64,000 nucleotides of DNA from Gammaproteobacteria bacterium (GCA_028817225.1 JAPPQC010000026.1:8631-72630), one strand, 5' to 3'; positions 30,297 to 51,678 are shown, counted from the stretch's first letter. Notes: generated by a model from the letters alone, not told the origin. Program-made: numbers and translations.

Positions 30297-30342
30297 ATTC
30301 CCATTGTTTTTTTGAGATGCGGTATCATGGCGGTTTGTGACC

Positions 30343-31167
30343 ATGCGGTATTCGGCATTTTTGTTGTGGCCGGTGTGGTTGTGCGCCGCGGTTCTCGGAG
30401 CCGTTGCGGTTTCCGCCGACCCCCTTGATGAAGCATCGGACCTCGTCCGCGACGGGGTCGAGAAGGGCGCCGCCTCGCAGCGCGCCATCAACCGGATTGA
30501 CGACGAGACGCGCCGCCTGCGCGAGGAGCGGCGGGCGCTGCTCGCCAGGGTCGAGTCCCTTGAAACCTACCTGCGCCAACTGCGCGCGCTGATTGACGAC
30601 CAGCAGGGCGCCATCGAGCGCTACCGCGACGGCATCGCGCGCGCGCGCGACATGGAGCGCGAGATTCTGCCGCTGGCCGAAAGAATGGTCGGCGCGCTGG
30701 ACGAGTTTGTCCGGTTGGATGTGCCGTTTCTGCCCGGCGAGCGCGGCGCGCGCGTGGAGCGGCTGAAGGCGATGCTGCCGAAGTCCGGCCTGTCGGCGTC
30801 GGAGAAATTCCGCCGCATTCTGGAAGCCTACGGCATTGAGGCCGATTACGGGCGCACCATCGAGGCGCGGCGCGGCGAACTGGGCGCGCCGGAAGGCGGC
30901 GGCGGCCAAGTCGTGGATTTCCTTCGCGTCGGCAGGAATATCCTTGTCTATCAGACGCTGGACGGCGGGCGGCTCGGTGTCTGGGATTCCGCCGCAAAGT
31001 CGTGGCGTCCGCTCGGCGACGAATACCGCCCGGCGGTCCGCCGCGGCCTGCGCATGGCGCGCGAGACGGTGTCGCCCGGCCTGCTGGTGCTGCCGGTGCG
31101 GGCCGCAGACGCGCGCGATGAGGGCGCACGCGATGAGGCCGTGCGCGACGGAGAGGCGGCGCAATGA
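30343..31167 (+). CDS. DUF3450 family periplasmic protein (TtpB-like, TonB2-system associated)
   Basis: Signal peptide, coiled-coil. First gene of the TonB2-type cluster. The ORF track starts at GTG 30337; ATG 30343 is preferred. Confidence 0.65.
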   Translation: MRYSAFLLWPVWLCAAVLGAVAVSADPLDEASDLVRDGVEKGAASQRAINRIDDETRRLREERRALLARVESLETYLRQLRALIDDQQGAIERYRDGIARARDMEREILPLAERMVGALDEFVRLDVPFLPGERGARVERLKAMLPKSGLSASEKFRRILEAYGIEADYGRTIEARRGELGAPEGGGGQVVDFLRVGRNILVYQTLDGGRLGVWDSAAKSWRPLGDEYRPAVRRGLRMARETVSPGLLVLPVRAADARDEGARDEAVRDGEAAQ

Positions 31168-32558
31168 AGCAATACCTCGCGGCGCTGATGCTGGCGTGGA
31201 TGTTGTGCGCGCCGGTTTCTGCACAGCAACCCGCGCAGCAACCCGCGCAGCAAACACCGCCGCCGGCGTCGTCGTTCAAGCAACTGCTGGAGAAAATCCG
31301 CGGCGATTACCGCGAAGACCTTGCACAGCGCCGCCAACGCGAGAGCCGCTTCGCCGGCGACAGGGACCAGCAGGCGCAGGCGCTGGCCGCGGCGCAGCGG
31401 CGTCTTGACCAATTGATGAAGGAAAGCGCGGCGCTGGAGGCGCGCTTCAACGACAACGAGGAGAAACTGCTTGAACTGCGGCAGTTGCACCGCCAGCGCG
31501 CCGGCGATCTGGAGGAACTGTCGGCGGTGGTCGTGCGCAGCGTCGCCGACATCCGCGCGACTTTGGCGGAATCGTTCATGACGCTGCTGCTGCCCGGCGC
31601 CGACGACCAACTCGCGCGCCTGATGCGCCAGGACGGCCTGCCCGACCTCGCCGGCCTTGAAGACCTGTGGTATCTGATGACCGAAATCATGACGCTGCAG
31701 GGCGGCAGCCACCGCTTTGAGGCCGATGTCATCCTGTCCGACGGGCGCCGCGAGCGCCGCGAGGTGACGGGCATCGGCCCGTTCACCGCGATCTCGCAGG
31801 GGCGCTTCCTGAAATACCTGCCCGACAGCCGCGGCCTCGCCGACCTCGCCCGCCAGCCGGCGTCGCGTTATCTGGCCGCCGCCGAGACCGTCTCGCAAGC
31901 CGGCGCCGATTCGGGCTTTGTCGCGGCGCCGGTGGACCCGTCGCGCGGCGCCATTCTGGCGACGCTGGTCCAGGCGCCGACGCTGGTTGAGCGCATCGGC
32001 CAGGGCGGCTGGATCGCCTACCTGATTCTGGCGCTCGGCCTCGCCGGCCTGCTGCTGGCGGCGGAGCGCATCGTGTCGCTGACGCGCGCGGTCGGCGGCG
32101 TGCGCCGGCAGAAGGACGCGCCCGAACCGTCGCCGGCCAATCCGCTGGGCCGCGTGCTCGGGGTTTCGCGCGAGCACGACGGCGCCGATGTGGAAAGCCT
32201 TGAACTGAGCCTGCACGACGCCGTCATCCGCGAAATGCCGCCGCTTGAACGCGGCCTCGGCGCCCTCAAGGTGCTGGCCGCGATTGCGCCGCTGCTGGGG
32301 CTGCTCGGCACCGTCGTCGGCATGATCGAGACTTTCCAGGCAATCACGCTGTTCGGCACCGGCGACCCGCGCACGATGGCCGGCGGCATCAGCCAGGCGC
32401 TGGTGACGACGGCGCTGGGGCTGATGGTCGCGGTGCCGCTGCTGCTGCTGCACACCTTCGCCGCCGCGCGCAGCCGTGAAATCCGTCAGATTCTCGAGGA
32501 GCAAAGCGCCGGCATCGTCGCGCTGCACGCGCGCCGCGGCGCCGCCGGGGGGGCGTGA
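31164..32558 (+). CDS. MotA/TolQ/ExbB family protein with large N-terminal periplasmic domain (TtpC-like)
   Basis: Signal peptide and a periplasmic domain of about 270 aa, then the ExbB signature 'LAAIAPLLGLLGTVVGMIETF'. Confidence 0.75.
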   Translation: MKQYLAALMLAWMLCAPVSAQQPAQQPAQQTPPPASSFKQLLEKIRGDYREDLAQRRQRESRFAGDRDQQAQALAAAQRRLDQLMKESAALEARFNDNEEKLLELRQLHRQRAGDLEELSAVVVRSVADIRATLAESFMTLLLPGADDQLARLMRQDGLPDLAGLEDLWYLMTEIMTLQGGSHRFEADVILSDGRRERREVTGIGPFTAISQGRFLKYLPDSRGLADLARQPASRYLAAAETVSQAGADSGFVAAPVDPSRGAILATLVQAPTLVERIGQGGWIAYLILALGLAGLLLAAERIVSLTRAVGGVRRQKDAPEPSPANPLGRVLGVSREHDGADVESLELSLHDAVIREMPPLERGLGALKVLAAIAPLLGLLGTVVGMIETFQAITLFGTGDPRTMAGGISQALVTTALGLMVAVPLLLLHTFAAARSREIRQILEEQSAGIVALHARRGAAGGA

Positions 32559-33091
32559 TGCCGGCGCTGCACACGCTGGTCTGGCCGGTGCAGGATTTTC
32601 TGGCGCTGGGCGGCCCCGTGCTGTTCGCCGTCATGCTCGTCACTTTCGTGATGTGGTTTCTGATTGCCGAGCGCTACTGGTATTTCGCGACCTGGTCGCC
32701 GCGCGCGATGCGGCGCTACGCGGCGATGTGGCGCCAACTTGTGGATGCGCCGGCGTGGCGGCGGCGCGCCGTTCGCCGCTGCTGGCTGTCCGAGTACCGC
32801 GTCGAGAACGAAAGGCGCCTGGCGCTGATTCGCGCGCTGGTGCGGCTGAGTTTGCTGCTCGGCCTGCTGGGCACGGTGGTCGGCATGATCGAGGTCTTCG
32901 ACGCGCTCGCCTCGACCGGCTCAAGCGACGCCCGCACCATCGCGTCGGGCGTTTCCAGGGCGACGATTCCGACGATGGCCGGCATGGTCGCGGCGCTGTC
33001 CGGCTTTTATTTTTCGGTGCATCTGCGCCACCGCGAAAAGCGCATGCTCGGGCGGCTCGAGGAACACTTTCACCGGGGCGCCGCCGCATGA
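32555..33091 (+). CDS. exbB: biopolymer transport protein ExbB
   Basis: 3-TM ExbB with 'LLGLLGTVVGMIEVF'. Confidence 0.85.
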   Translation: MMPALHTLVWPVQDFLALGGPVLFAVMLVTFVMWFLIAERYWYFATWSPRAMRRYAAMWRQLVDAPAWRRRAVRRCWLSEYRVENERRLALIRALVRLSLLLGLLGTVVGMIEVFDALASTGSSDARTIASGVSRATIPTMAGMVAALSGFYFSVHLRHREKRMLGRLEEHFHRGAAA

Positions 33092-33101
33092 GGGGCCGCG
33101 C

Positions 33102-33515
33102 ATGAGACAGCGATCCCTGTCGCGGCGGCCCGGCGAGGAGGAGGCGGACATCAACCTGACGCCGATGCTGGATGTCGTTTTCATCCTGCTGATTTTCTTC
33201 ATCGTGACCGCGTCGTTCGTCAAGGAGGCCGGCGTCGAGGTGTCGCGCCCGACCGCGGAGTCCGCCGTGCGCCAGGAACACGCCTCGATCCTGGTCGCGA
33301 TAGACGCCGGCGGCGGCGTCTGGATAGACAAGCGCACTGTGGATATCCGCGCGGTGCGCGCCAACATTGAGAGACTGCACCTGCAAAACCCGCAGGGTTC
33401 GGTCGTCATCCTCGCCGACCGCATGTCGAACAACGGCGTGCTGGTCGAGGTGCTCGACCAGGTGCGGCTGGCCGGCGTCGAGAAAATCGCCATCGCCGCG
33501 CGCAACGATGAATGA
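33102..33515 (+). CDS. exbD: biopolymer transport protein ExbD/TolR
   Basis: 'DINLTPMLDVVFILLIFFIV' TM with the conserved Asp. Confidence 0.85.
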   Translation: MRQRSLSRRPGEEEADINLTPMLDVVFILLIFFIVTASFVKEAGVEVSRPTAESAVRQEHASILVAIDAGGGVWIDKRTVDIRAVRANIERLHLQNPQGSVVILADRMSNNGVLVEVLDQVRLAGVEKIAIAARNDE

Positions 33516-34122
33516 CGCCGCCGCCGCGCGCCTGCTGGGCAGTCTGCTGGCGGCGGCGGCGGTCACCTACGGGTTGTTTCTGCTGATGTCGCGGCTGGTT
33601 GGCACCGACGCGCTGAGCGAACTGGAGACGCCGCCGCCGCTGCTGGTGGACTTCATCCGCGTCGAGCGCGACGAACAGACGGTGCCCGACCGCCGCCCGC
33701 CGCCGCCGGAGCCTGACAAGACCGAGCCGCTGCCGCCGACGATACGCAAGTTCACCGTCAACAAGCCCGCCGCCGCGCTGCCCGGCCTGGACGCGAGCCT
33801 CGCGCGTGCGCTCGACATCCGCACCGACCTGTCGGGTTTCGCCGTCGGCGACGGCGGCACGCCGCTGGTGCGGGTCAGCCCGGTGTATCCGCTGCGGGCG
33901 TCGAGCCGCGGCATCGAGGGCTGGGTCGAGATTGAATTCACGATCGCCGCCGACGGAGGCGTCGTCGCGCCGCGCGTCGTCGAGTCGGAGCCGCCGGCGG
34001 TGTTCGACCGCGCCGCGCTGCGCGCGGTTTCGCGGTGGCGCTACCGCCCGCCGGTGCAGGACGGGCGCCCGGTGCGCCGCGACGGGGTTCGCGTCGTCAT
34101 CGAGTTTCAACTGGAACGATGA
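33508..34122 (+). CDS. tonB: energy transducer TonB
   Basis: N-terminal TM, Pro-rich spacer 'RRPPPPEPDKTEPLPP', C-terminal TonB domain. ATGA overlap with exbD. Confidence 0.75.
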   Translation: MNDAAAARLLGSLLAAAAVTYGLFLLMSRLVGTDALSELETPPPLLVDFIRVERDEQTVPDRRPPPPEPDKTEPLPPTIRKFTVNKPAAALPGLDASLARALDIRTDLSGFAVGDGGTPLVRVSPVYPLRASSRGIEGWVEIEFTIAADGGVVAPRVVESEPPAVFDRAALRAVSRWRYRPPVQDGRPVRRDGVRVVIEFQLER

Positions 34123-35321
34123 GGCCGTTTGCGCGCCGCTGTCCCGCCGCGCTGCTCGCCGCCGCCTTGTGCGCGGCGCCGGCGCAGGCCGCCTGGCTGC
34201 TGTCGCAGAAGGTGTACGACGCCGTCGCCGCCGCCGCCGCGCAGGCCGAAGACGGCCAGCACGACGCCGCCCGCGCGGCACTGGAGCGGCTGGCGGCGCG
34301 CGGTTCGCTGAACCCCTACGAACGCGCGGCGGTCGAGCAGCAACTCGGCGCCTTCGCGTCGGCGCGCGGTGATTACCCCAAAGCGGCGTCGCATTTCGAG
34401 ACGGCGCTCGCCGCCGACGGCCTGCCGGAAGCGTTCGCCGGCCAGTTGCGCTACAACACCGCGCAGATTTACCTTGCGCTGGACCGCGCCGGCGACGCGC
34501 TTGCGTTGCTGAAACCGCTGTTTGACGGCGACGCCGAGCCGCCGCCGGAAAGTTACTTCTCGATGGCCTCGGCGCTGCACTATCTTGAACGCGACGCCGA
34601 GGCGCTGGAATGGGCCGAGCAGGGCCTGCGCGGCCATCCGTCGCCTGCGGAGGGGCATTATGCGCTGGTTTCCGGGCTGAACCTGCGGCTGGAACGCTGG
34701 CGCCGCGCGCGCGAACTGCTGCAGGAAATGATCCGGCGTTTCCCGGACAAGGCGGTGTACTGGCGCCAACTGACGGCGGTGTGGATGGAACTGGGCGACG
34801 ACAAGCAGGCGCTGGTCGTCGGCGAACTCGGCCACAGCCGCGGCGTGCTGGCGCAAGGCCGCGATGTGCTGCAACTGGCGCGGCTGTATCTCTACCACGA
34901 CTTCCCGCACAAGGCCGCGCACCTGTTGCAGCGCGGCCTTGACGACGGCGTCGTCGCCGGCAAGGCGGCGCATTGGGCATTGCTCGCGTCGGCGTGGAGC
35001 AACGCCCGCGAACACGCGCGCGCGGTGGCGCCGCTGCAAAAGGCGGCGCAATTGTCCGACACCGGCGAATTGTTTTTGCGGCTGGCGCGGCTGCGCGTGG
35101 AAGACGAGGACTGGCCGCGCGCGCACCGCTCGCTGGCCGCCGCTCTCCGGCGCGGCGGTCTCGCCGACGAACCCGGCGCGCGCCTGCTGAACGGCATCGT
35201 GCTGGCGAAACTTGACCGCACCGCCGAGGCCGAGGCCGAATTCTCGTACTGCCTGGGCTTTAAAACAACGCGCACCGACGCGACGCGCTGGCTGGAGTAT
35301 CTCGGCCAGGCGAACCGCTGA
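34119..35321 (+). CDS. tetratricopeptide-repeat protein (TtpD-like, TonB2-system associated)
   Basis: Signal peptide plus multiple TPR-like helices. Overlaps the tonB stop. Confidence 0.7.
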   Translation: MRPFARRCPAALLAAALCAAPAQAAWLLSQKVYDAVAAAAAQAEDGQHDAARAALERLAARGSLNPYERAAVEQQLGAFASARGDYPKAASHFETALAADGLPEAFAGQLRYNTAQIYLALDRAGDALALLKPLFDGDAEPPPESYFSMASALHYLERDAEALEWAEQGLRGHPSPAEGHYALVSGLNLRLERWRRARELLQEMIRRFPDKAVYWRQLTAVWMELGDDKQALVVGELGHSRGVLAQGRDVLQLARLYLYHDFPHKAAHLLQRGLDDGVVAGKAAHWALLASAWSNAREHARAVAPLQKAAQLSDTGELFLRLARLRVEDEDWPRAHRSLAAALRRGGLADEPGARLLNGIVLAKLDRTAEAEAEFSYCLGFKTTRTDATRWLEYLGQANR

Positions 35322-35328
35322 CCGGCGC

Positions 35329-36921
35329 CTACGATTCGCCGTCGAGGACGATGCGAAAGCCGATGCGCGGCGAGTGGAACGATGCCGGCACGCGGTTCTC
35401 GAAGTCGATGCGCGCGGTTTCTTTGCCCGGCAGCGAGAAGTTGCCGCCCTTGACGACGACCGCGTAGCCGTTGCCGGAGACGCCGATGCTGCGGGTCCAC
35501 TCGGAGACATTGCCGCCCATGTTCAGGATGGCGCCGTGCGGCGTGACATCGCCGCGGTTTTCCAGCGCCGGCAGCGGCGCGGTCGCCGGGTTCTCGGCGG
35601 TGGCGGCGCGGCCTTTCTCGTAAAAGGCGCCCCACGGATAGGCGTAGCGCCCGTTGGACGACGCCGCCGCGGTCCATTCGGCGGCGCTCGGCAGGCGCCC
35701 GCCGGCCCATCTTGCGAACGCATAGGCCGACCACCAGTCAATGCCGGTCGCGGGCAGGCGGTCGTCGTCCGTCTCCGGCCACGGCGGCGGGCGGTAGTCG
35801 TGGTCTTTCGGTTCGTTCTCGTTGGCGTAGAAGCCGAGTTGCGCGATCGGGTCTTGCAGAAAACGGCGGTACTGGGCGCGCGTCACCTCGTGGCGCAGAA
35901 TGCGGAAGGTCTGTTGCCGGCGGTCGCGGTCGAACAGTTTCTCGATGACTTCAAGATGCCGGCGCGACAGCGCCGCCAGCAGCCCCGGAATTCTCGCGTC
36001 CTGCGGCAGGCCGAGCGGGTAGGCGCCCGGCGCAATCCGCGCGATTGGCGTGTCTTGCTGCGACCACGGCGGTCTTTGCGGCGCCCGCTCATAGACGCAG
36101 CGAAAACCGACATAGGGCGAGCGGTAGGCCGGCGGCGCGTGGCGGTAGAGCGCGTTCAGGCTGTAGATTTCATACGGGCGGTTGAAGGCATTGCCGCCGT
36201 GCAGGCTCGGGCGCGGGTCGTCGCGCGTTCCCTGCGCCCATTCGGACACATTGCCGCCGAGGTCGTGCAGCCCCTGCGGCGTGTCGAGGCCGGGGTGCAC
36301 GCCGCACCGCTGCGCCGCGTTGAGGCGCGCGTCGAGGTGCGGCCAGCCGGAGGCGTTGAAGGCGCCGCCCCACGGGTAGAGCCGCGCCTCGACGCCGCCG
36401 GCGAGCGCCATCCATTCGCGGCGCGTCGGCAGGCGGCCTCCGGCGGCGCGGCAGTAGGCGTGGGCGTCGTAATAACTGACGCCGTTGGCCGGCGCCGCGA
36501 GACGCCCGCTGATCTTGTGGTCGCGGCTGGCGCTGTCGTAGCTCCAGCCGCCGGGCTGGCCGGGCGCGGCGATGCCCGGCGGGCGGTGCAGCGCCTGCCA
36601 TTTTGAGAACTTGTAGAAATTCTCCTGGCGCACCTCGCAGCGGTCGGCCCAGAGGGTGCTCTGGTTGTGCGTGAACGGCTTCCCGGCCAGCAGGTGGTCG
36701 AACGAGCGGATGTACTCGAAGGCGCGGAGGTTGGACAGCAGAATGCGGTCGAGTCGCCGGCCCTGCGTGTCGCCGCCGCCGGCATTGCCGTCGCCGCCGC
36801 GCACGGCGACGGTGTCGAAGTCGTGGAAGGTGACGCGCAGTTTGTAGTAACTGGCGACGGCGATCGCGAGCACGAAAAGCGCCAGCGCGGTGTTCAGCAA
36901 CGCCGAAAAAACGCGCTTCAT
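35329..36921 (-). CDS. membrane-anchored protein with two tandem FGE-sulfatase (SUMF1/EgtB/PvdO) domains
   Basis: N-terminal TM, then two domains each carrying 'RLP...EW' and 'GGNVSEW' FGE-like motifs. ATGA overlap with the upstream gene. Confidence 0.75.
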   Translation of the reverse strand: MKRVFSALLNTALALFVLAIAVASYYKLRVTFHDFDTVAVRGGDGNAGGGDTQGRRLDRILLSNLRAFEYIRSFDHLLAGKPFTHNQSTLWADRCEVRQENFYKFSKWQALHRPPGIAAPGQPGGWSYDSASRDHKISGRLAAPANGVSYYDAHAYCRAAGGRLPTRREWMALAGGVEARLYPWGGAFNASGWPHLDARLNAAQRCGVHPGLDTPQGLHDLGGNVSEWAQGTRDDPRPSLHGGNAFNRPYEIYSLNALYRHAPPAYRSPYVGFRCVYERAPQRPPWSQQDTPIARIAPGAYPLGLPQDARIPGLLAALSRRHLEVIEKLFDRDRRQQTFRILRHEVTRAQYRRFLQDPIAQLGFYANENEPKDHDYRPPPWPETDDDRLPATGIDWWSAYAFARWAGGRLPSAAEWTAAASSNGRYAYPWGAFYEKGRAATAENPATAPLPALENRGDVTPHGAILNMGGNVSEWTRSIGVSGNGYAVVVKGGNFSLPGKETARIDFENRVPASFHSPRIGFRIVLDGES

Positions 36922-38636
36922 TGCGTGAACGGCAGCCGTCCGAATCTGCGTAAAAGCCCCAGCACCAGCAGCAGCGCGGCGATGCCGCTGGCGAGGAACA
37001 TCTCGCGCTCCTTGCGGTGGCGCACCGGCGGGCGGTAGGTCATCCACGACACTTCGTTGACGCGAATGCCGTTTTCGTCGGTCGCCAGCCGCAGGCGCCC
37101 GTCGCCGTCAAGCGCCGCATAGACGAACGCGATCAGGTAGTCGTCCCTTTCCGGGCTGACGAAGGTCGCGACGCGCCAGCGCCAGGCGCGCGGCTCGCGC
37201 TGCGCCGGCGGCATCAGCACCAGGGTTCCCTGTTTCAGCGGCGTTTGCAGGCCGCGGTAAATCGCCGGGTACAGTCCGAGGCGGCTGGTGACCTCGGCCT
37301 CGCCGGGCAGGAAGGCGAGGGCTTCCTGGCGTTCGTTGCCGGCGAGTTCCGCCTTTTTCAGCGGGCGGTTGCGTTCCAGCGCCAGTTGGTTGTCGGCGAG
37401 GCCGGGCGCCGTTTGCTGCGACACGCGCAAAGGCCGGCCCGCGGAGACGGTTTGCACCTGCTCGCCGAGTTGTTTCAGCAGCGCCAGTTGCGCCGGGTCG
37501 CGCGGCAGTTGCGTCGCCGCCGCCGGGGTCAGCACATCGCGGCGGAAGTCAAACCGTTCCAGCGTCAGGTAGCGGCCGCTGTCGGCGTCGTTTTGCGCCT
37601 TTTCCATGAAACCGAACAGCGCGGCCAGCAGCCGGGTGTAGTCAATCCGGTTTTCGCCGCCGCCGCGCGAGGTCTCGACGATTTCGCTGTTTTTCCTGTC
37701 CGCCGACTTGCTCGCCGACGGCACCGCCGTGCGGAAGCGGATGACCGACGGCGCCTGCCCCTGCTGCGCGCCCGGGTTCATGGCCTGTCCCATCAGTTGC
37801 GACAGCGCGTTGAACATCGCGTCGCTGCGGCGCGACAGTTCGCTTTGCTCGGCGCGCCCGTCGCCGGGCAGGTCGGACGGCGGCGTTTCGGCATCCCACG
37901 CGAGGTCGTCGAACGGGTACGGCTCGCTCGCGGCGTCGCCGGACAGGTCGGTGTCCTGCGGAAACGCCTGCCACGCCTTGCCGCCGTGGCGCGGGCCGTC
38001 GTCGGCCCGGCCCTCGCCGGGTTCGGCGGGCGGCTTCTCCTCATCGGCCCCGTCCGCCGGTTCGCCGCCCGCCGCGGCCCAATCGGCGCCGGGCACCGGC
38101 GCGCCGTCTTCGTAGCCGATGAAGTGCCAGTGCCCGGGCAGCCGCCCGTGGTGCTGGCGCAGGATGGACATCGTGATGTAGAACATCCGCACATCGTAGA
38201 TGTCCACGCGAATCCGCGCCTTCTGCTGCGGCGTCATCGCCGCGAGGAAATGGTCGAAGGCGTTGTTCTGTTTCAGCAGTTCGTCGCGCCGGAACACGCG
38301 CTTGCTGTAATAGTCGCGCACGAAGTCGGTGTGGAGTTCAATGATCGGCATGACCCGGAAGTCGAGCACGCGGTCAAGCGGCGAGTTGTGGTAGTCGTGC
38401 AGCCGCGCCGGCGCCGAGGTCGGCAGGCCGTTCATGACCACCGATGTCGCCAGGTCGCGGCTGAGCAGCACCGAGATGTCCTCGACCTCGGCCAGGCGCT
38501 CCTGCTCCTGCGCGTGCTTGGTCGCAATCGTGATCACAATCAGGATGATGATGATGGCGACGCTGTTGGCGAGGATGTCGGCCAGCGCGATGCCGGCGAA
38601 ACCCGGGAAAAGACGCGGCTGTGCGCGGCTGCTCAT
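36918..38636 (-). CDS. hypothetical 572-aa protein with ExbD/TolR-like N-terminal TM (Asp-containing), long acidic linker and C-terminal TM
   Basis: 'FAGIALADILANSVAIIIILIVITIA' resembles the ExbD/TolR TM segment. Low-complexity D/E/P/G linker. Ends with a hydrophobic helix. Confidence 0.55.
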   Translation of the reverse strand: MSSRAQPRLFPGFAGIALADILANSVAIIIILIVITIATKHAQEQERLAEVEDISVLLSRDLATSVVMNGLPTSAPARLHDYHNSPLDRVLDFRVMPIIELHTDFVRDYYSKRVFRRDELLKQNNAFDHFLAAMTPQQKARIRVDIYDVRMFYITMSILRQHHGRLPGHWHFIGYEDGAPVPGADWAAAGGEPADGADEEKPPAEPGEGRADDGPRHGGKAWQAFPQDTDLSGDAASEPYPFDDLAWDAETPPSDLPGDGRAEQSELSRRSDAMFNALSQLMGQAMNPGAQQGQAPSVIRFRTAVPSASKSADRKNSEIVETSRGGGENRIDYTRLLAALFGFMEKAQNDADSGRYLTLERFDFRRDVLTPAAATQLPRDPAQLALLKQLGEQVQTVSAGRPLRVSQQTAPGLADNQLALERNRPLKKAELAGNERQEALAFLPGEAEVTSRLGLYPAIYRGLQTPLKQGTLVLMPPAQREPRAWRWRVATFVSPERDDYLIAFVYAALDGDGRLRLATDENGIRVNEVSWMTYRPPVRHRKEREMFLASGIAALLLVLGLLRRFGRLPFTQ

Positions 38637-39163
38637 TGCGCCCGCTCGCGGACGACCTCGTCAATGTAGGGGGGGATGTCGTCGAGCGAGACCGATTTCA
38701 GCAGTTCCCTGTCGGCGATGATCCAGCCGATGGTCAGGTTTTTGCCGGGCATGATCTGCATCATGCAGTTGCGCGCCTCGGCCATCGTCGCGACGCTGTT
38801 TTCAAGGATGGTGAAGACGATTTGGCGGTCGCGCGCCTGGTAGATGCGGCGCGCGTAGCGCGTGAACGGGCTGTTCCCGGCGCAGATGGCGCCCTTGCGC
38901 ACGGTCTCGGAGGTCTCGGCGATTCGCAGTTCGCCGGGAAAGGCGATGACGACATGGCCGGAGCCGCGCGTGCCCCAGTCCACCTTGTAGGCGCCGCCTT
39001 CGTTGATGTCCGACAGGCGCTCCTGCAGCGACGCCTGCGAGAAGGTGTTGATCAGCAGGAACAGCACCAGCAGCAGCGCGAACACGCCGCCGAAAATCTC
39101 GACCGAGGGCGCGTTGTTCTTTTCCTGGTCGCGCAGGCTGTCGCGGTGGCCTCGTTGTCGCAT
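38633..39163 (-). CDS. hypothetical single-pass membrane protein (ExbD/TolR-like architecture)
   Basis: Basic N-terminus, TM 'VEIFGGVFALLLVLFLLI', periplasmic domain of about 120 aa. ATGA overlap downstream. Confidence 0.5.
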   Translation of the reverse strand: MRQRGHRDSLRDQEKNNAPSVEIFGGVFALLLVLFLLINTFSQASLQERLSDINEGGAYKVDWGTRGSGHVVIAFPGELRIAETSETVRKGAICAGNSPFTRYARRIYQARDRQIVFTILENSVATMAEARNCMMQIMPGKNLTIGWIIADRELLKSVSLDDIPPYIDEVVRERAQ

Positions 39164-39168
39164 CGGCG

Positions 39169-40215
39169 TCAGTCGTTCAGGTTGAGGATGCGGTTCTCGT
39201 AAATCGTCAGCAGGTTGTTTTCCCAGCGTTGCAGCATGGTCTGGAGCAGCGTCAGGACGATGCTGAGCGACAGCGCGATCAGCGTCGTGTCAAAGGCGAT
39301 GCCGAGCGGCGAGATGGCCTTGCCGAGTTCGTTCGACAACTGCGCGAGGCCGTGCTGGTTGCTGATGATCTGCTGGATGCCGTCGGAGGCGAGCGAGATG
39401 CCGAACACGGTGCCGATGAAGCCGAGTATCGGGATGGCCCAGTTGAGGTAGCGCGGCAGGATGTAGAAGTCGCCCGATTTCTTCCAAATCAGGTCGAGGT
39501 AGATCTCCGGCGTCGTGTTGGCGTTTTCGTACATGGTCTGGCGGTAGGCGCGTATCAGCAGCGAGCGCGCCGGCTTCGACAGCAGGCGCTGTTCGCGCCA
39601 CAGCACATAGCCCTTGCCGAGCAGCATCACCAGGCCCCAGCTGAACAGCAGGATGGTCAGCGGCGGAATCGGGCCGCGGTCGAGAAACTTGCCGGTGAAA
39701 AACGCCAGGTCGGGGCGCGCCGCCGCGAGGTTGTGCACCGCGACCAGAATGCCGGTGGACAGCACCACCGCGGCGGACAGCGTCAGCAGCAGCGGCGGCC
39801 CGGACAGCGCCGCCTCCAGTTTGCCGGTGACGCTTTGCGTGTGCTCGTCGGCGGACAGGCGGCTCATCAGGATATAGAACACATAGAGCGCCATCGTCAC
39901 CGCCAGCAGCGGCAGCGAGCGTTCCAGCAGCGCGCTGTGCTTGCCGATCAGCGGAATGAAAATCTGGTAGGCGACGACGGCGCTGATCAGTATCAGCGAC
40001 AGCAGCGTCGTCCATTCCAGCGTCTTGTAGATGGCCAGGCGGTTTTGCAGCGCCAGCGCCGCCAGCGGCAGCGCCCCGGCGGCGACGCCGGCGGCGATGC
40101 CGTAGATGACCGCGGCGCCGGTGGCGTAGAATAAACTGCCGAAGGCCGCCGGGAACAGCAGCAGCGCCAAAACCGCCGGCACGGTTTTCGCCGGTGTCAG
40201 GTCGGGTTTTTGCAT
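39169..40215 (-). CDS. MotA/TolQ/ExbB proton-channel family protein with extended N-terminal TM region
   Basis: C-terminal 'NWAIPILGFIGTVFGISLA...GIAFDTTLIALSLSIV' matches the MotA/ExbB signature. About 200 aa of extra TM helices lie N-terminal to it. Confidence 0.7.
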   Translation of the reverse strand: MQKPDLTPAKTVPAVLALLLFPAAFGSLFYATGAAVIYGIAAGVAAGALPLAALALQNRLAIYKTLEWTTLLSLILISAVVAYQIFIPLIGKHSALLERSLPLLAVTMALYVFYILMSRLSADEHTQSVTGKLEAALSGPPLLLTLSAAVVLSTGILVAVHNLAAARPDLAFFTGKFLDRGPIPPLTILLFSWGLVMLLGKGYVLWREQRLLSKPARSLLIRAYRQTMYENANTTPEIYLDLIWKKSGDFYILPRYLNWAIPILGFIGTVFGISLASDGIQQIISNQHGLAQLSNELGKAISPLGIAFDTTLIALSLSIVLTLLQTMLQRWENNLLTIYENRILNLND

Positions 40216-40283
40216 AACCGCTGATTATAGTCCAGGCGGCGGCGCAATGCACCGCGCACGGCGAAGTCCGTGTGATAGACTGC

Positions 40284-40949
40284 ATGACGAAGATGAACAC
40301 GGCTTCCTTGCACCGGGTCAGCGGCAGGCCGCTGGCGCCGCCGTTTCCCGAAGGCGCCGAACAGGCGCTGTTCGCGCTCGGCTGTTTCTGGGGCGCCGAG
40401 CGCTGTTTCTGGACCTTGCCCGGCGTCTATGTGACGGCGGTCGGCTACGCCGGCGGGCACACCGACCATCCGACCTACGAGCAGGTTTGCGGCGGCGCCA
40501 CCGGCCACGCCGAGGCGGTGCTTGTCGTCTATCGCGGCACGCGCGCGGCGTGGCCGGAATTGCTGAAGGTGTTCTGGGAGGCGCACGACCCGACGCAGGG
40601 GATGCGCCAGGGCAACGACATCGGCAGCCAGTACCGTTCGGCGATTTTCTGCGGCAGCGGCGAGCAACTGGAGTCGGCGCGGCGTTCGCGCGAACACTAC
40701 CAGGCGGCGCTGAGCGCCGCAGGCCGCGGCGCCATCACGACGGAAATCGCGCCGGCGCCGGCGTTCTTCTACGCCGAGGATGTCCACCAGCAGTATCTGG
40801 CGAAGAATCCGCGCGGCTATTGCGGGCTGGGCGGCACCGGTGTCCGCTTTGACGGTTTCGACGCCGCGCCGTCACAGGCCGGCGCCCAGCAGGTCGTGCA
40901 TGTTGAGCGCGCCGACCAGCGTCTTGCGGTCGTCAAAGACCGGCATTGA
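40284..40949 (+). CDS. msrA: peptide-methionine (S)-S-oxide reductase
   Basis: '[12 protein letters not shown]' active site. The C-terminus is extended by about 30 aa and overlaps the convergent kdsD by 78 nt. Confidence 0.88.
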
Positions 40950-42965: not shown

Positions 42966-43042
42966 GGGTCTGTAGCTCAGCTGGTTAGAGCACACCCCTG
43001 ATAAGGGTGAGGTCGGTGGTTCAAGTCCACCCAGACCCACCA
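42966..43042 (+). tRNA. tRNA-Ile (anticodon GAT)
   Basis: Near-identical to E. coli tRNA-Ile(GAU). Anticodon loop CU-GAU-AA. Confidence 0.92.
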
Positions 43043-43060
43043 CGATGCACCGCGATGCGC

Positions 43061-43136
43061 GGGGCCGTAGCTCAGCCGGGAGAGCGCCTGCTTTGCAAGC
43101 AGGAGGTCAGGAGTTCGATCCTCCTCGGCTCCACCA
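43061..43136 (+). tRNA. tRNA-Ala (anticodon TGC)
   Basis: Near-identical to E. coli tRNA-Ala(UGC), 'GCCTGCTTTGCAAGCAGG'. Confidence 0.92.
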
Positions 43137-43307
43137 GCGGGGCGGCGAAACCCAATGCCGTTTTATTTGCAAGCCGCATTGGGCTTCGCTGCAAGCGAAG
43201 GGTTTTTTGACAATTAGCAAAGCCAGGATTCGCGGAAACATCCCGTTTCCGTGAATAACATTGTATCCAACACCAGTAACCTCGGCGGAGACTGCTTGAG
43301 GTTATAT

Positions 43308-46192
<2,885 letters not shown>

Positions 46193-46257
46193 TAACACTC
46201 AAGCACTTTCGTGCCTGTTGCAATGTGATTCAATGTGATTCCCGGCTTTGTTCATGT

Positions 46258-46291
46258 CAAAGGCGCCGCCCGCGCGGGCGGCGCCTTTTTT
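46258..46291 (+). terminator. rho-independent terminator directly after 23S (GGCGCCGCCCG-CGC-GGGCGGCGCC + T7)
   Basis: Perfect GC stem followed by TTTTTTT. Confidence 0.7.
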
Positions 46292-46380
46292 TGTGCGTTT
46301 TTGCGTGTTTTGCCGGCGGCGGCGCGGCGCCGGGGAAGGGCGGTTTTGCGAAAAGCGCGGCCTGTGTGTGTTCTCCGCTA

Positions 46381-46423
46381 TTGACTTTGGCATAGAGGGG
46401 GGTAGCATGGCGCATTCCACCCA
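46381..46423 (+). promoter_or_regulatory. promoter/operator motif copy 1 (TTGACT-N16-TAGCAT + GCGCATTCCAC)
   Basis: Conserved with the 48838-48881 copy. GGAGGA SD before ATG 46442. Confidence 0.4.
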
Positions 46424-46441
46424 TAACTCATCTGGAGGAGA

Positions 46442-47746
46442 ATGATGATATTAACCAAAAATTTCGCTCGTGGATTCAAACGGGCATCTTCGGGGCTTGG
46501 TTACGCAATGGTTTGTTTTTCCGCCGTCATGGCTTGTTTCTCATCCGTTGTCGCCGCTCCGAAGGTCGCTCACGAGACGGTGTTGTCCAATCTCGACAAT
46601 CCATGGGACATGGCGTTTCTGCCGGACGGAACAATGTTCTTCACCGAGAAATGTCACGGCCTTTCGGTGCGGCTGCCTTCGGGCAAAGTCAACAAATTGC
46701 TCGGCATGAAAGACAGCAAGGGTTACGCCTCGACCGCGCGTGATCTCTTCTGCGAGGGCCAGGCCGGCATGCAGGGCGTGGCCGTTGACCCCGATTTTTC
46801 CAAAAACCGGCAGATTTATGTCTATTCCACATCCGACAAGAGCGCATCCGGCAGCAACCGCCTGATGCGGATGAAGGTCAACAGCGGTTTCAGCGGCGTG
46901 TCCGGCAGGACCGACATCATTGACGATGTCCCGTACAAGCCGAAGGCGACCAATCACCCGTTCGGCGGGCCTGGCGCGCACAACGGAGGCCGTGTTCGTT
47001 TCGGGCCGGACGGGTATATCTACCTGACCACCGGCGACACGCACAACGGCAAGGTTCCGCAAAGCCCGACGCTGCTCGGCGGCAAAGTGCTGCGCGTTGA
47101 CCGCGACGGCAAGGCGGCGTCCGGCAACAAGCCGCCGAAAGGCTACGACAAGCGCATCTACACCTACGGGCACCGCAATGTGCAGGGCATCGCCTTCCGC
47201 CCGGGTGACGGCACGCCGGTGGTGGCCGAGCACGGCCCCTGGCACTCCGATGAAATCACCGTGCTGAAGAACGGCGGCAACGCCGGCTGGGATCCGCGCC
47301 CCAATGTGGCCGGTCGCGGCGACTGCCCGAACGGCTACTGCGGCTACATGCCGAACCAGATGGAAGGCGTGAATCCGATGGAACGGGCAAAATACATGCC
47401 GATGACGGATCTCAAGACCTACCCGGACGCCATGCGCCCGGCCTGGGTCAACAAAGGGCTGTCGCAGGGCACCTCCAGCGCCGCGTTTCTGACCGGCAAG
47501 CAGTGGGGCGACTGGAATGGCCGTCTCGCCGTCGGAATCCTCGGAATCGGTTTCGGCGGGACGCCGGTCGGCCACCGCATTGATGTGATTGAACTCTCCA
47601 AAGACGGCATGTCCGCGGGCGAAGTCATCCCGATGTCGCTGCCGATGGCATCGGGCCGCTTCCGGTCGGTGGTGCAGGGGCCGGACGGCAGCCTCTACGC
47701 AGCCGTGGATGAAGGCGCAATCTTCAAACTGACGCCCAGGAGTTAA
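46442..47746 (+). CDS. PQQ-dependent sugar dehydrogenase (soluble aldose/glucose-sorbosone dehydrogenase family)
   Basis: Signal peptide and six-bladed beta-propeller GSDH motifs. AT-rich 5' end. Confidence 0.8.
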   Translation: MMILTKNFARGFKRASSGLGYAMVCFSAVMACFSSVVAAPKVAHETVLSNLDNPWDMAFLPDGTMFFTEKCHGLSVRLPSGKVNKLLGMKDSKGYASTARDLFCEGQAGMQGVAVDPDFSKNRQIYVYSTSDKSASGSNRLMRMKVNSGFSGVSGRTDIIDDVPYKPKATNHPFGGPGAHNGGRVRFGPDGYIYLTTGDTHNGKVPQSPTLLGGKVLRVDRDGKAASGNKPPKGYDKRIYTYGHRNVQGIAFRPGDGTPVVAEHGPWHSDEITVLKNGGNAGWDPRPNVAGRGDCPNGYCGYMPNQMEGVNPMERAKYMPMTDLKTYPDAMRPAWVNKGLSQGTSSAAFLTGKQWGDWNGRLAVGILGIGFGGTPVGHRIDVIELSKDGMSAGEVIPMSLPMASGRFRSVVQGPDGSLYAAVDEGAIFKLTPRS

Positions 47747-47775
47747 TCAACCCGGCTCTGCCGCGCCGCCCGGCG

Positions 47776-48132
47776 GTGCGGCAGGGTCTTGCGCCTGTTC
47801 AATCATCAATGAAAGCGTTGGCATTTTCCGCCGCCGTTCTTGTGCTGATGCCCGTTGCGGCGTCAGCGCAGGAGACGGGCGCCGACACCGTGGCGAAGGT
47901 TTATGCGGAGGTGTGCTCCAAGTGTCACGGCCCGACCGCGCGGGGAATGGCGAGTTTCCCGCGGCTTTCGGACAAGGAGAAGGCGTATCTCGCCGACCGG
48001 CTCAGGCGATACCGCGCCGGAGAAATGGTCGGCCCCAATACCCCCCTGATGATGCCGCACGCGGTCAACCTGACCGACGCCGAGATTGACGAACTGGCGG
48101 CCTATATTTCCACGGCTTTTGCAGGGAACTGA
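47776..48132 (+). CDS. class I c-type cytochrome
   Basis: Signal peptide and a single 'CSKCHG' CXXCH haem motif. Start ambiguous (47776 or 47809). Confidence 0.7.
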   Translation: MRQGLAPVQSSMKALAFSAAVLVLMPVAASAQETGADTVAKVYAEVCSKCHGPTARGMASFPRLSDKEKAYLADRLRRYRAGEMVGPNTPLMMPHAVNLTDAEIDELAAYISTAFAGN

Positions 48133-48235
48133 AGAACCGCCCTGGCTGGCCGGGGAGCGGCGATTCGTTGTGATTCAGCGCGCCGCCTGACACCGGCGCC
48201 GCACCCCGGCAATGCCTGCCGGTTTTGTACATGTC

Positions 48236-48270
48236 AAAGGCGCCGCCCCGCACGGGCGGCGCCTTTTTTT
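48236..48270 (+). terminator. rho-independent terminator between the convergent cytochrome c and SRPBCC genes (near-copy of the 23S terminator)
   Basis: GGCGCCGCCCCG-CAC-GGGCGGCGCC + T7. The about 55 bp around it repeat the element at 46247-46295. Confidence 0.6.
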
Positions 48271-48292
48271 GTCGCCGGCGCCGGCGCCCCGC

Positions 48293-48823
48293 TCAGTTGA
48301 AGTGGCGCGCGAGGCTGCCGAGGCCCGCCTCATAGACGCCGGCCATCGTCTCGACGGCTTTTTCGTCCGGCGCGTCCTTGGCGTCGAAAGTGCCCGACCA
48401 GGTCACCGTGGCCTTGCCGCCCGGCGCGCCTTTGACGGCAACGACCGACTCGTAGTTTTTCACCGGCAGCGGCCCGCCGGTAATCCGGTAGGTGTAACTC
48501 TTGTCGTAGTCGCTGTGTTTGACCAGCACCTCAGTCACTTCGGCGCCGTCGGCCAGCGTCAGCACGCGCACCGCGCCTTCCTTGTTGTGTTGCCCCTTCT
48601 TGAGGGTGCTCATGACGACGACGGGGTGCCAGACATCAAGATGGTTGAAGTGGCCGATCATCTTCCAGGCCGTTTCCGGCGATGCATTGACCGTCGTCTG
48701 TTTCTCGACGCTGAGTTTTCCGCCGGCCTGCGCGGACGGCGCCGCAAGGCACAAGGCCGCGGCCAGTGCGATGCCGGTTGCGATTCCGGAAAAGGGCGAT
48801 TTTGTGCAAAGTGTGTTTTTCAT
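48293..48823 (-). CDS. SRPBCC (Bet v1-like/polyketide cyclase) family secreted protein
   Basis: Signal peptide then the SRPBCC fold. Start at internal ATG 48823 with a GGGAGAA SD. Confidence 0.6.
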   Translation of the reverse strand: MKNTLCTKSPFSGIATGIALAAALCLAAPSAQAGGKLSVEKQTTVNASPETAWKMIGHFNHLDVWHPVVVMSTLKKGQHNKEGAVRVLTLADGAEVTEVLVKHSDYDKSYTYRITGGPLPVKNYESVVAVKGAPGGKATVTWSGTFDAKDAPDEKAVETMAGVYEAGLGSLARHFN

Positions 48824-48837
48824 GTTTTCTCCCAGTA

Positions 48838-48881
48838 TTGATTTTGGTATAGGAGAGGGTAATATAGCGCATTTCCACGCC
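48838..48881 (+). promoter_or_regulatory. promoter/operator motif copy 2 (TTGATT-N16-TAATAT + GCGCATTTCCAC); partial third copy at 48897-48925
   Basis: Aligns position for position with copy 1. Upstream of the TonB-dependent receptor. Confidence 0.4.
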
Positions 48882-48960
48882 GCTCTTTCCCGAATATTGA
48901 CTTTGACGGGGGTGGCATTCGGCACATTTTTACACCCCGAAAACCTCAAGGAGTCCCGAC

Positions 48961-51357: not shown

Positions 51358-51380
51358 CGCCGCGCCGCGCCGCGCGGCGG

Positions 51381-51409
51381 TTGCAATCCACCCCGGCGCC
51401 CGTTATAAT
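51381..51409 (+). promoter_or_regulatory. near-consensus sigma70 promoter TTGCAA-N17-TATAAT in front of the 5S rRNA
   Basis: Direct reading. Only 1 mismatch to TTGACA, with a perfect TATAAT. Confidence 0.55.
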
Positions 51410-51447
51410 CGCCGTTTCCGACAAACCAGACTGTGAGATTTGCAGCC

Positions 51448-51540
51448 ATGATGAAAGTACCGCTGGAAAACATGATCTCGCCGATCATCTTTTTCGCCAT
51501 ATTGGGTTTTCTGGATTACCTGATTGCCACCGCGCGCTGA
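51448..51540 (+). CDS. possible 30-aa hydrophobic leader peptide (MMKVPLENMISPIIFFAILGFLDYLIATAR)
   Basis: ATG-initiated ORF between the promoter and the 5S. No clear SD. Possibly spurious. Confidence 0.15.
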   Translation: MMKVPLENMISPIIFFAILGFLDYLIATAR

Positions 51541-51558
51541 GCTGCGCGACAACCGGTT

Positions 51559-51678
51559 TGCCTGGCGGCCATAGAGTGCTGGTACCACCCGATCCCATTC
51601 CGAACTCGGAAGTGAAACGGCGCATCGCCGATGGTAGTACGGGGCCTCCCCGTGTGAGAGTAGGACACCGCCAGGCAT
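51559..51678 (+). rRNA. rrf: 5S ribosomal RNA
   Basis: 'TGCCTGGCGGCCATAG...GAAGTGAAAC...GATGGTAGT...GAGAGTAGGACACCGCCAGGCAT' aligns with E. coli 5S along its whole length. Confidence 0.9.

Follow-up and report, generated by a model that had tools for sequence, protein, structure and literature searches.

What do four tightly packed genes for membrane proteins, which recur together almost only in bacterial symbionts of sponges and corals, build in the cell envelope? The genes, here called A, B, C and D, lie on the minus strand at positions 35329-40215 of a stretch of DNA from a gammaproteobacterium (GCA_028817225.1 JAPPQC010000026.1:8631-72630). The window, to which all coordinates refer, is the whole stretch of 64,000 nucleotides (nt) that was analysed. 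An initial annotation of this window had described the genes as a candidate undescribed envelope machine driven by the proton motive force, and this description stands, strengthened by the conserved synteny that we found. In our reading, to which we give a probability of about 0.55, the operon encodes an inner-membrane "5:2 motor" of the MotA/ExbB type that is driven by an ion-motive force and has a new set of partners. A bolder version goes further and sees an undescribed MotA/ExbB-type machine, with a doubly anchored Asp-bearing axle and a non-catalytic tandem FGE partner, that was spread horizontally for a function specific to animal hosts; this we put forward tentatively, and with more doubt than conviction.

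The known outputs of 5:2-type motors are a handful: flagella, Ton, Tol-Pal, the secretion system of type IX (T9SS) with gliding, Agl-Glt and Zorya. Each output that was newly found revealed a new route by which energy from the inner membrane reaches the envelope. The operon would add another, with a doubly anchored "B-subunit" and a partner of FGE fold, and proteins B and C, so far "hypothetical", would gain a testable role. Furthermore, the distribution of the operon points to a role in animal-microbe symbiosis, a field in which few mechanistic determinants are known.

Layout and distribution of the four-gene unit

Gene A (39169-40215; all four genes are on the minus strand) is an open reading frame (ORF) of 348 amino acids (aa) for a divergent channel subunit of the MotA/TolQ/ExbB family with about eight membrane helices. 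It is followed by gene B (38633-39163, a 176-aa ORF), which encodes a single-pass membrane protein with a periplasmic domain. Gene C (36918-38636, a 572-aa ORF) encodes the putative equivalent of a MotB/ExbD/TolR subunit, enlarged by a linker, a novel domain and a second anchor, and gene D (35329-36921) an N-terminal membrane or signal segment with two domains of the FGE-sulfatase fold. The 530 aa of D are counted from its ATG; in the mechanical ORF list the gene begins upstream, with a GTG at 37047. Hydropathy gives eight hydrophobic segments for A, one for B, two for C (N- and C-terminal) and one, N-terminal, for D. Read directly from the sequence, the A/B junction is TGA-cgccg-ATG, with a gap of 5 bases, and the B/C and C/D junctions are ATGA overlaps at 38633-38636 and 36918-36921; translation is coupled at every junction from A to D. 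The four coupled minus-strand ORFs of the initial annotation were thus found exactly as it had given them, with respect to coordinates, overlaps, the 5-nt gap and the quoted motifs. On a public contig that carries an identical C protein, the gene calls have the same four product lengths (348, 176, 572 and 530 aa). At NCBI, the protein identical to A is named "MotA/TolQ/ExbB proton channel family protein", those identical to B and C are each a "hypothetical protein", and the one identical to D bears the name "SUMF1/EgtB/PvdO family nonheme iron enzyme".

Since the window has about 67% G+C, long ORFs by themselves are weak proof of genes. That A to D are real genes and not chance ORFs of GC-rich DNA follows from their conservation in related loci, with order and strand unchanged. 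A has more than 400 relatives, nearly all without names. A pattern scan over one genome per GTDB species gave 151 relatives, and the best 80 were kept for a comparison of loci by tblastn. The complete A-B-C-D unit, in one order and on one strand, is present in 67 of these 80 loci, and a contig end interrupts another seven. Identity of the orthologues to the window proteins ranges from 27 to 96%, with medians of 44% for A, 58% for B, 40% for C and 45% for D. The gene order is therefore conserved across genomes and by no means unique to that of the window, and chance juxtaposition can be dismissed because the synteny extends over several phyla, with genomes of Gammaproteobacteria, Nitrospirales, Spirochaetales, Myxococcota and "Deltaproteobacteria" among those that have it.

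All 80 loci come from metagenome-assembled genomes, with no cultured host among them; this confinement to genomes of symbionts had escaped the initial annotation. The names of the bins are mostly those of sponge symbionts (Candidatus (Ca.) Porisulfidus, Oxydemutatoraceae, Poriferihabitaceae, Spongiihabitans, Azotimanducaceae), to which are added Pseudomonadales and Gammaproteobacteria from sponge projects and single bins each of Nitrospirales, Spirochaetales, Myxococcota and "Deltaproteobacteria". One bin has the isolate name Plut_88873, which we take to be coral-derived. The window shares 95% identity with a sponge bin from Papua New Guinea and 91% with a Ca. Porisulfidus chromosome. Porisulfidus and Spongiihabitans are known as sponge symbionts (PMC12988363), and Oxydemutator and Spongiihabitans as symbionts of Stylissa (PMC11685487).

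The four-gene unit is found in quite different genomic neighbourhoods. Around the 80 loci there is no further conserved neighbour beyond the lineage-specific genes for MsrA and the TonB2 system, and a scan of viral contigs for the operon gave no match. A to D are a self-contained, co-inherited module with a narrow distribution that is linked to ecology, and this pattern suggests horizontal spread among symbionts. Our guess is that the output of the operon is a function of the envelope or of the host interface, since its carriers are almost exclusively symbionts of sponges and corals that belong to unrelated phyla. If the bolder version is true, the host-specific role could be envelope remodelling, or holding out against the host matrix or phagocytosis.

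The four proteins

We place protein A in the MotA/TolQ/ExbB superfamily, as a divergent member whose three-helix core is like that of ExbB and TolQ. It had been described as a MotA/ExbB-type channel, and membership of the superfamily is supported by Pfam matches, by profile alignment and, with weak statistics, by structural comparison. The Pfam family MotA_ExbB (PF01618) is matched by 46 of 67 members of the A family at E <= 0.01 (best E 8.3e-7), and one relative of A (P0371) reaches 28.5 bits against it. In hhalign, with a small ExbB/TolQ alignment as target (E. coli, window and loci), the A family aligns at E 7.7e-5, such that residues 171-348 of A fall onto residues 26-222 of E. coli ExbB. 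The alignment pairs PILGFIGTVLGIS of A with PFVGLFGTVWGIM of ExbB, which places T269 on T148 of ExbB, and "AFDTTLIAL" with "EALLATAIGL", which places T311 on T181. Within the A family, all 77 orthologues have the same residue at G265, G268, T269, G272, D309, T310 and T311. The AlphaFold2 model of the A monomer is all-helical, with a predicted local distance difference test score (pLDDT) of 89, and the biological matches to this model in a Foldseek search of the PDB are dominated by TolQ (9ddm, 8odt, 9kpz), ExbB (5zfp, 5sv0) and ZorA (8qyk).

The ExbB/TolQ-like core as delimited by hhalign occupies residues 171-348 (39172-39705) and includes the motifs GxxGTVxG (with T269) and AFDTT (with D309 and T311). 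Residues 1-170 (39706-40215) are made up of five extra hydrophobic helices, at 11-29, 36-54, 72-90, 100-118 and 142-160, according to hydropathy and the AlphaFold2 model. This part has no Pfam match, and the five helices are specific to the A family. It had been estimated at about 200 aa; as the ExbB-like core begins near residue 171, it comes to about 170.

For C, the initial annotation had listed four features, all of which are supported: an Asp-bearing helix like that of MotB or TolR, an extended acidic linker, a domain whose fold is unknown, and another membrane helix at the end of the protein. The N-terminal membrane helix (residues 14-38; 38523-38597) reads A-L-A-D20-I-L-A-N24, with the Asp codon at 38577-38579, and all 75 orthologues have both D20 and N24. 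By eye, this motif is like AYADFMTAMMAFF of E. coli MotB and "PFIDVMLVLL" of ExbD. Conservation among the orthologues marks C, rather than B, as the predicted obligatory ion-coupling subunit. In the AlphaFold2 model of C (overall pLDDT 68.6), the helix is followed by a compact periplasmic domain at residues 86-172 (38121-38381; pLDDT 83-89), a candidate for a TolR/ExbD-like beta-alpha fold; against a small ExbD/TolR alignment, this domain gave no hhalign signal, and C profiles did not align with ExbD. The protein as a whole has no match in Pfam or NCBIfam, including ExbD (PF02472) and the OmpA-like domain, and none in PADLOC, and its profile yielded only noise against the PDB, with no chain of ExbD, TolR or MotB at E <= 1.

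Residues 174-293 of C (37758-38117; pLDDT <50) form a disordered, acidic, Pro/Gly-rich linker. Its length and sequence are variable, but P226 and, at 240-243, an aromatic-P-x-D motif (window about 37905-37965) are retained; position 240 is Tyr in 42 and Trp in 26 sequences, P241 is found in 73 of 75 and D243 in 52 of 75; these are candidate docking motifs. The C-terminal domain (298-535; 37032-37745) is modelled as an alpha+beta fold at a pLDDT of about 90 and has no convincing counterpart in the PDB. A second membrane helix, seen in hydropathy and in the model (541-566; 36939-37016), is followed by the basic tail RRFGR, and R541, E543 and G560 are nearly invariant in the family alignment. Because of this basic tail after the last helix, the positive-inside rule would place both termini of C in the cytoplasm and its middle part in the periplasm.

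Protein B has a short basic N-terminus, a membrane helix at about residues 20-42 and a periplasmic domain, which is an ExbD-like topology. By eye only, the periplasmic domain has a beta-beta-alpha-beta-alpha-beta pattern. There is no match for B in Pfam (including ExbD, PF02472), NCBIfam or PADLOC, and its profile against the PDB gave only noise and a match of E 1.2 to ZorB (8qyd_F) over the membrane helix. With hhalign, "NNAPxVE22" of B falls onto "INVTPFID25" of ExbD at E 0.006 and a probability of 6%; for the periplasmic domain against the small ExbD/TolR alignment the probability is about 0, and for homology between B and C it is 1.5-4%. An exhaustive profile search of 1.84 billion representatives gave a B family of 55 clusters at E <= 0.001 and no bridge to ExbD. 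The previous description of two ExbD/TolR-like proteins is thus overstated with respect to B, which forms its own family and is probably an accessory subunit.

The Glu that had been pointed out at the edge of the B helix is present in the window protein, but it is not conserved: of 69 orthologues, 39 have Glu at this position (22), 28 have Ala and 2 have Ser. The clades with Ala22 have an intact operon and comprise Poriferihabitaceae/Spongiihabitans, part of the Azotimanducaceae, and the Nitrospirales, Spirochaetales and Myxococcota bins. In the same helix, P19, F24 and G25 are invariant wherever the position is covered, and position 26 is Gly in 67 of 69. Glu22 as a coupling residue was therefore rejected, and because 30 of the 69 orthologues have Ala or Ser instead, B is not an obligatory ion-coupling subunit.

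The weak tail of the exhaustive B search (E 1e-7 to 1e-3) consists of long repetitive proteins matched over 5-11 stretches each, and two that were checked in Pfam are NHL-repeat beta-propeller proteins. For this reason, the segment "GxYxVxWGxxGSGxxVIxFP" at about residues 43-90 of B (38900-39040) may be likened to a single NHL blade, a resemblance that could be due to chance.

Protein D had been described as a tandem FGE-domain protein, which is borne out by its match to FGE-sulfatase (PF03781) in two stretches at E 3.3e-49 and by its relatives in the PDB (pFGE, FGE, CalU17 and OvsA). The two FGE-sulfatase-fold domains, at about residues 90-280 and 333-525, follow an N-terminal signal-anchor or signal peptide. 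The nearest solved relative is pFGE/SUMF2 (1y4j, E 1.2e-8), a non-catalytic paralogue. We scanned the window protein and 65 orthologues, 66 sequences in all, for cysteines and for a lipobox. Four cysteines are conserved, C95, C157, C206 and C275, each of them within domain 1; of these, C157 (in "AYC") and C275 (in "GFRC") lie at the site of the structural disulfide of FGE and are probably structural. To go by human FGE, the catalytic, copper-binding Cys pair, which lies towards the C-terminal end of the domain, would presumably fall in the segment before "GFRC". None of the 66 sequences has a conserved Cys at that position, and domain 2 has no conserved Cys. A lipobox-like pattern is seen in 4 of the 66, which is consistent with chance. 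The NCBIfam models for EgtB (66 bits; cut-off 360) and SenA (62; cut-off 420) stay far below their thresholds, and D has no metal domain of the DinB type.

D is probably catalytically inactive, to judge from these sequences. Since it has no catalytic Cys pair and is nearest to pFGE, it is most likely a binding or scaffold module, periplasmic and either tethered to the membrane or secreted, rather than an enzyme. In its FGE-sulfatase fold, its probable disulfide cysteines and the absence of the catalytic pair, D resembles pFGE/SUMF2, PvdO and GldK/PorK; it differs from them in being a tandem protein with an N-terminal membrane or signal segment, and in being encoded together with a MotA/ExbB-type motor.

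A proposed motor and its rivals

How might the four proteins work together? As a 5:2 motor, A would form the channel ring, a pentamer by analogy, with five extra N-terminal helices in each subunit. C would contribute the helices of the central axle, in which Asp20 would bind the ion, and after them the putative TolR-like periplasmic domain, and would probably be a dimer. Flow of ions past Asp20 of C and Thr269, Thr311 and Asp309 of A would move A and C relative to each other, and the work would be passed on to the periplasm via the acidic linker and the novel C-terminal domain of C, which its second helix would tie to the membrane. B would be an accessory single-pass subunit, and D most likely a non-catalytic partner that binds or scaffolds the periplasmic parts of C, be it the linker or the C-terminal domain. 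Stoichiometry, ion coupling and contacts are modelled here on the solved 5:2 motors (PMC9389320).

Several observations weigh against this picture. The window A protein itself matches PF01618 over residues 261-340 at E 7.5e-4 with 19.7 bits, which is below the gathering threshold of 22.9, and the hhalign probability of the A family to ExbB/TolQ is only 62%. The Foldseek matches of A have E values of 0.08-0.55 and large root-mean-square deviations, the top match being a designed helical pore, and the A-family profile found 0 chains among the PDB sequences. The unit is not always complete either: two of the 80 loci (L005 and L007, both Porisulfidus) have A-B-C with unrelated genes in the place of D, and in four (L029, L036, L040, L045) A stands without B to D nearby. 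The 5:2 stoichiometry and any contact between C and D are based on analogy. Furthermore, C has a membrane anchor at each end, a poor fit to a freely rotating axle that reaches the outer membrane. Because of this double anchoring, the mechanics of the operon may differ from those of Ton (with TonB), Tol (with TolA) and GldLM.

There are precedents for channels of the MotA/TolQ type that serve envelope processes other than flagella and Ton, namely AglR-AglQ-AglS in Myxococcus gliding and SiiA-SiiB of the Salmonella pathogenicity island SPI-4. AglQ/S is also a precedent for such a channel with two different single-pass partners. Agl and Sii are linked to Glt or to type I secretion components, which are absent from the operon. 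Could B and C then both be ion-coupling subunits of the ExbD/TolR type, which form a heterodimeric axle in the A ring, as was suggested for AglQ/AglS with AglR? The ExbD-like topology of B, the alignment of its "NNAPxVE22" to "INVTPFID25" of ExbD, the weak ZorB match over its helix and the constant place of its gene between those of A and C, to which its translation is coupled, would fit. It also counts in favour that the choice between hetero- and homodimer is still open for AglQ/AglS themselves (PMC9389320). However, Ala or Ser takes the place of the Glu in 30 of 69 B proteins, including whole clades with an intact operon, the Pfam ExbD model does not match B, hhalign puts the probability at 6% for its helix and at about 0 for its periplasmic domain, and B and C have no detectable homology to each other. 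Hence, we consider a B:C axle unlikely.

A Ton- or Tol-like arrangement, in which a B dimer is the ExbD/TolR-like core and C is a transducer like TonB or TolA at the periphery of the A ring that reaches out to D or another target, would do justice to the shape of C. C resembles TonB and TolA in its N-terminal anchor, its long disordered linker rich in Pro and acidic residues, and its globular C-terminal domain, and its linker motifs recall the TonB D-box that binds ExbD (PDB 8vgd is among the matches). But the invariant membrane Asp and the candidate TolR-like domain are on C and not on B, whose acidic residue is dispensable; C carries no TonB_C (PF03544) or TolA C-terminal domain, the TonB_C protein being in the neighbouring cluster; and the C-terminus of C goes back into the inner membrane. 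We regard this arrangement as improbable. More improbable still is that there is no motor at all and that D is an oxidative enzyme of the FGE/EgtB/PvdO type, which A to C, as a channel or scaffold, supply with a cofactor or substrate or regulate. D does have the only strong family match of the four proteins as well as an enzyme name at NCBI, and it has weak matches to EgtB and SenA. On the other side stand the lack of a conserved Cys at the catalytic-pair position and of any in domain 2, the non-catalytic pFGE as its nearest solved relative, the EgtB and SenA scores far below cut-off, the missing DinB-type metal domain, and the channel-type nature of the invariant residues of A and C. Finally, one may ask whether the operon is a new form of a Zorya-like anti-phage module or of a T9SS-like motor for secretion or gliding. 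The A channel core has weak matches to the ZorA models of PADLOC (E 0.006 or worse, core only) and NCBIfam, ZorA 8qyk has a Foldseek probability of 0.98, and the combination of motor and FGE-fold protein is reminiscent of GldL/GldM/GldK (PMC9389320). Against Zorya, the NCBIfam ZorA model (NF033915) gives A 14.7 bits where 100 are required, A has no ZorA tail, as it ends (residue 348) about 20 aa past its last membrane helix, the operon has no gene for a cytoplasmic effector, and it is missing from viral contigs and keeps a stable position beside housekeeping genes within a lineage. Against T9SS, GldK (TIGR03525) scores 24 versus 350 bits, D has no lipobox, there are no matches to GldL/M/N or SprA, and the hosts are not Bacteroidota. 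To us, this last explanation is hardly credible.

The motor that we favour maps to no characterised system, and in this the initial annotation was right: by our comparisons, the operon belongs to none of Ton, Tol, flagellar stators, T9SS GldKLMN and Zorya. With ExbB-ExbD and TolQ-TolR it shares the last three helices of A, which align with transmembrane helices 1-3 and keep the channel Thr pair and the acidic residue of the last helix, as well as the single N-terminal helix of C with its invariant Asp and, as a candidate, the TolR-like periplasmic domain behind it. It departs from them in the five extra helices and the short cytoplasmic insert (about 50 aa) of A, in a C that is four times as long as ExbD/TolR with its linker, novel domain and second anchor, in the lack of a PF02472 match, and in the additional subunit B and the FGE-fold partner D. 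In contrast to Ton and Tol-Pal, the operon has no TonB, TolA, Pal, TolB or TonB-dependent receptor, and in contrast to flagellar stators, none of its proteins has an OmpA-like domain.

With GldKLMN/PorKLMN, to which the operon had previously been likened, the architecture is indeed shared, that is, a four-gene operon for an ion-driven motor, a long periplasmic anchor coupled through Asp or charge, and a protein of FGE fold. Homology is not, given that A matches Pfam MotA_ExbB and not GldL, that B and C match neither GldM nor GldN, that D is a tandem FGE protein without lipobox and with the low GldK score, and that the operon is at home in Gammaproteobacteria and other non-Bacteroidota. ZorA-ZorB is similar in being a divergent, non-flagellar pair of the MotAB type, with weak matches of A and B on its membrane core, and dissimilar in its ZorA cytoplasmic tail, its ZorB peptidoglycan-binding domain, its effector genes and its defence-island context. 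Full-text searches of the literature gave no description of the operon, and a group linked to FGE is absent from the surveys of 5:2 motors and MotAB homologues that were consulted.

Neighbouring genes and other features of the window

The operon converges with a TonB2-type cluster on the plus strand (30337-35321), which consists of genes for a DUF3450 protein, an ExbB-like protein of 464/472 aa, ExbB, ExbD, TonB and a tetratricopeptide repeat (TPR) protein; the stop codons of the cluster and the operon are 7 nt apart. The initial annotation had drawn attention to this tail-to-tail arrangement. The adjacency is real, but it is limited to the closest lineage: ExbB, ExbD and TtpC-like genes adjoin the operon in 6 of 80 loci, TonB in 7 and TPR in 9. 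As a consequence, the cluster is uninformative as to the function of the operon, and a functional tie between the two was rejected.

On its other side, a gene for a methionine sulfoxide reductase (PMSR/MsrA; 40272-40949, plus strand) is divergent from A. MsrA is the commonest neighbour and is found at 15 of the 80 loci, in related lineages only. In about 11 loci of one Pseudomonadales/Gammaproteobacteria lineage (including L034, L036 and L039), a gene that by eye is sulfotransferase-like, or a glycosyltransferase together with a sulfotransferase-like gene, lies upstream of A. At the A-only locus L036, the next gene resembles a transposase or nuclease.

With respect to transcription, a consensus scan found a terminator-like hairpin with a T-run on the minus strand at 35270-35288, 41 nt past the stop codon of D and within the 3' end of the TPR gene, which converges on the operon, and no minus-strand site of this kind within the operon. 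The promoter scan gave no full sigma-70 match for the operon. A TATAAT hexamer can be read from the sequence at 40226-40231 (minus strand), 10 nt upstream of the ATG of A; it is possibly a -10 box, which would imply a nearly leaderless transcript.

Further away, the layout of the rRNA genes (42966-51676) is unusual. Immediately upstream of a complete 23S gene (43308-46191) are the genes for tRNA-Ile(GAT) and tRNA-Ala(TGC), and upstream of this tRNA pair there is no 16S gene and instead one for a Na/Ca exchanger. The 5S gene (51561-51676) is about 5.3 kb away from the 23S gene, with three protein-coding ORFs between them. One of these, an ORF of 798 aa (48961-51357), resembles a TonB-dependent receptor when its translation is judged by eye.

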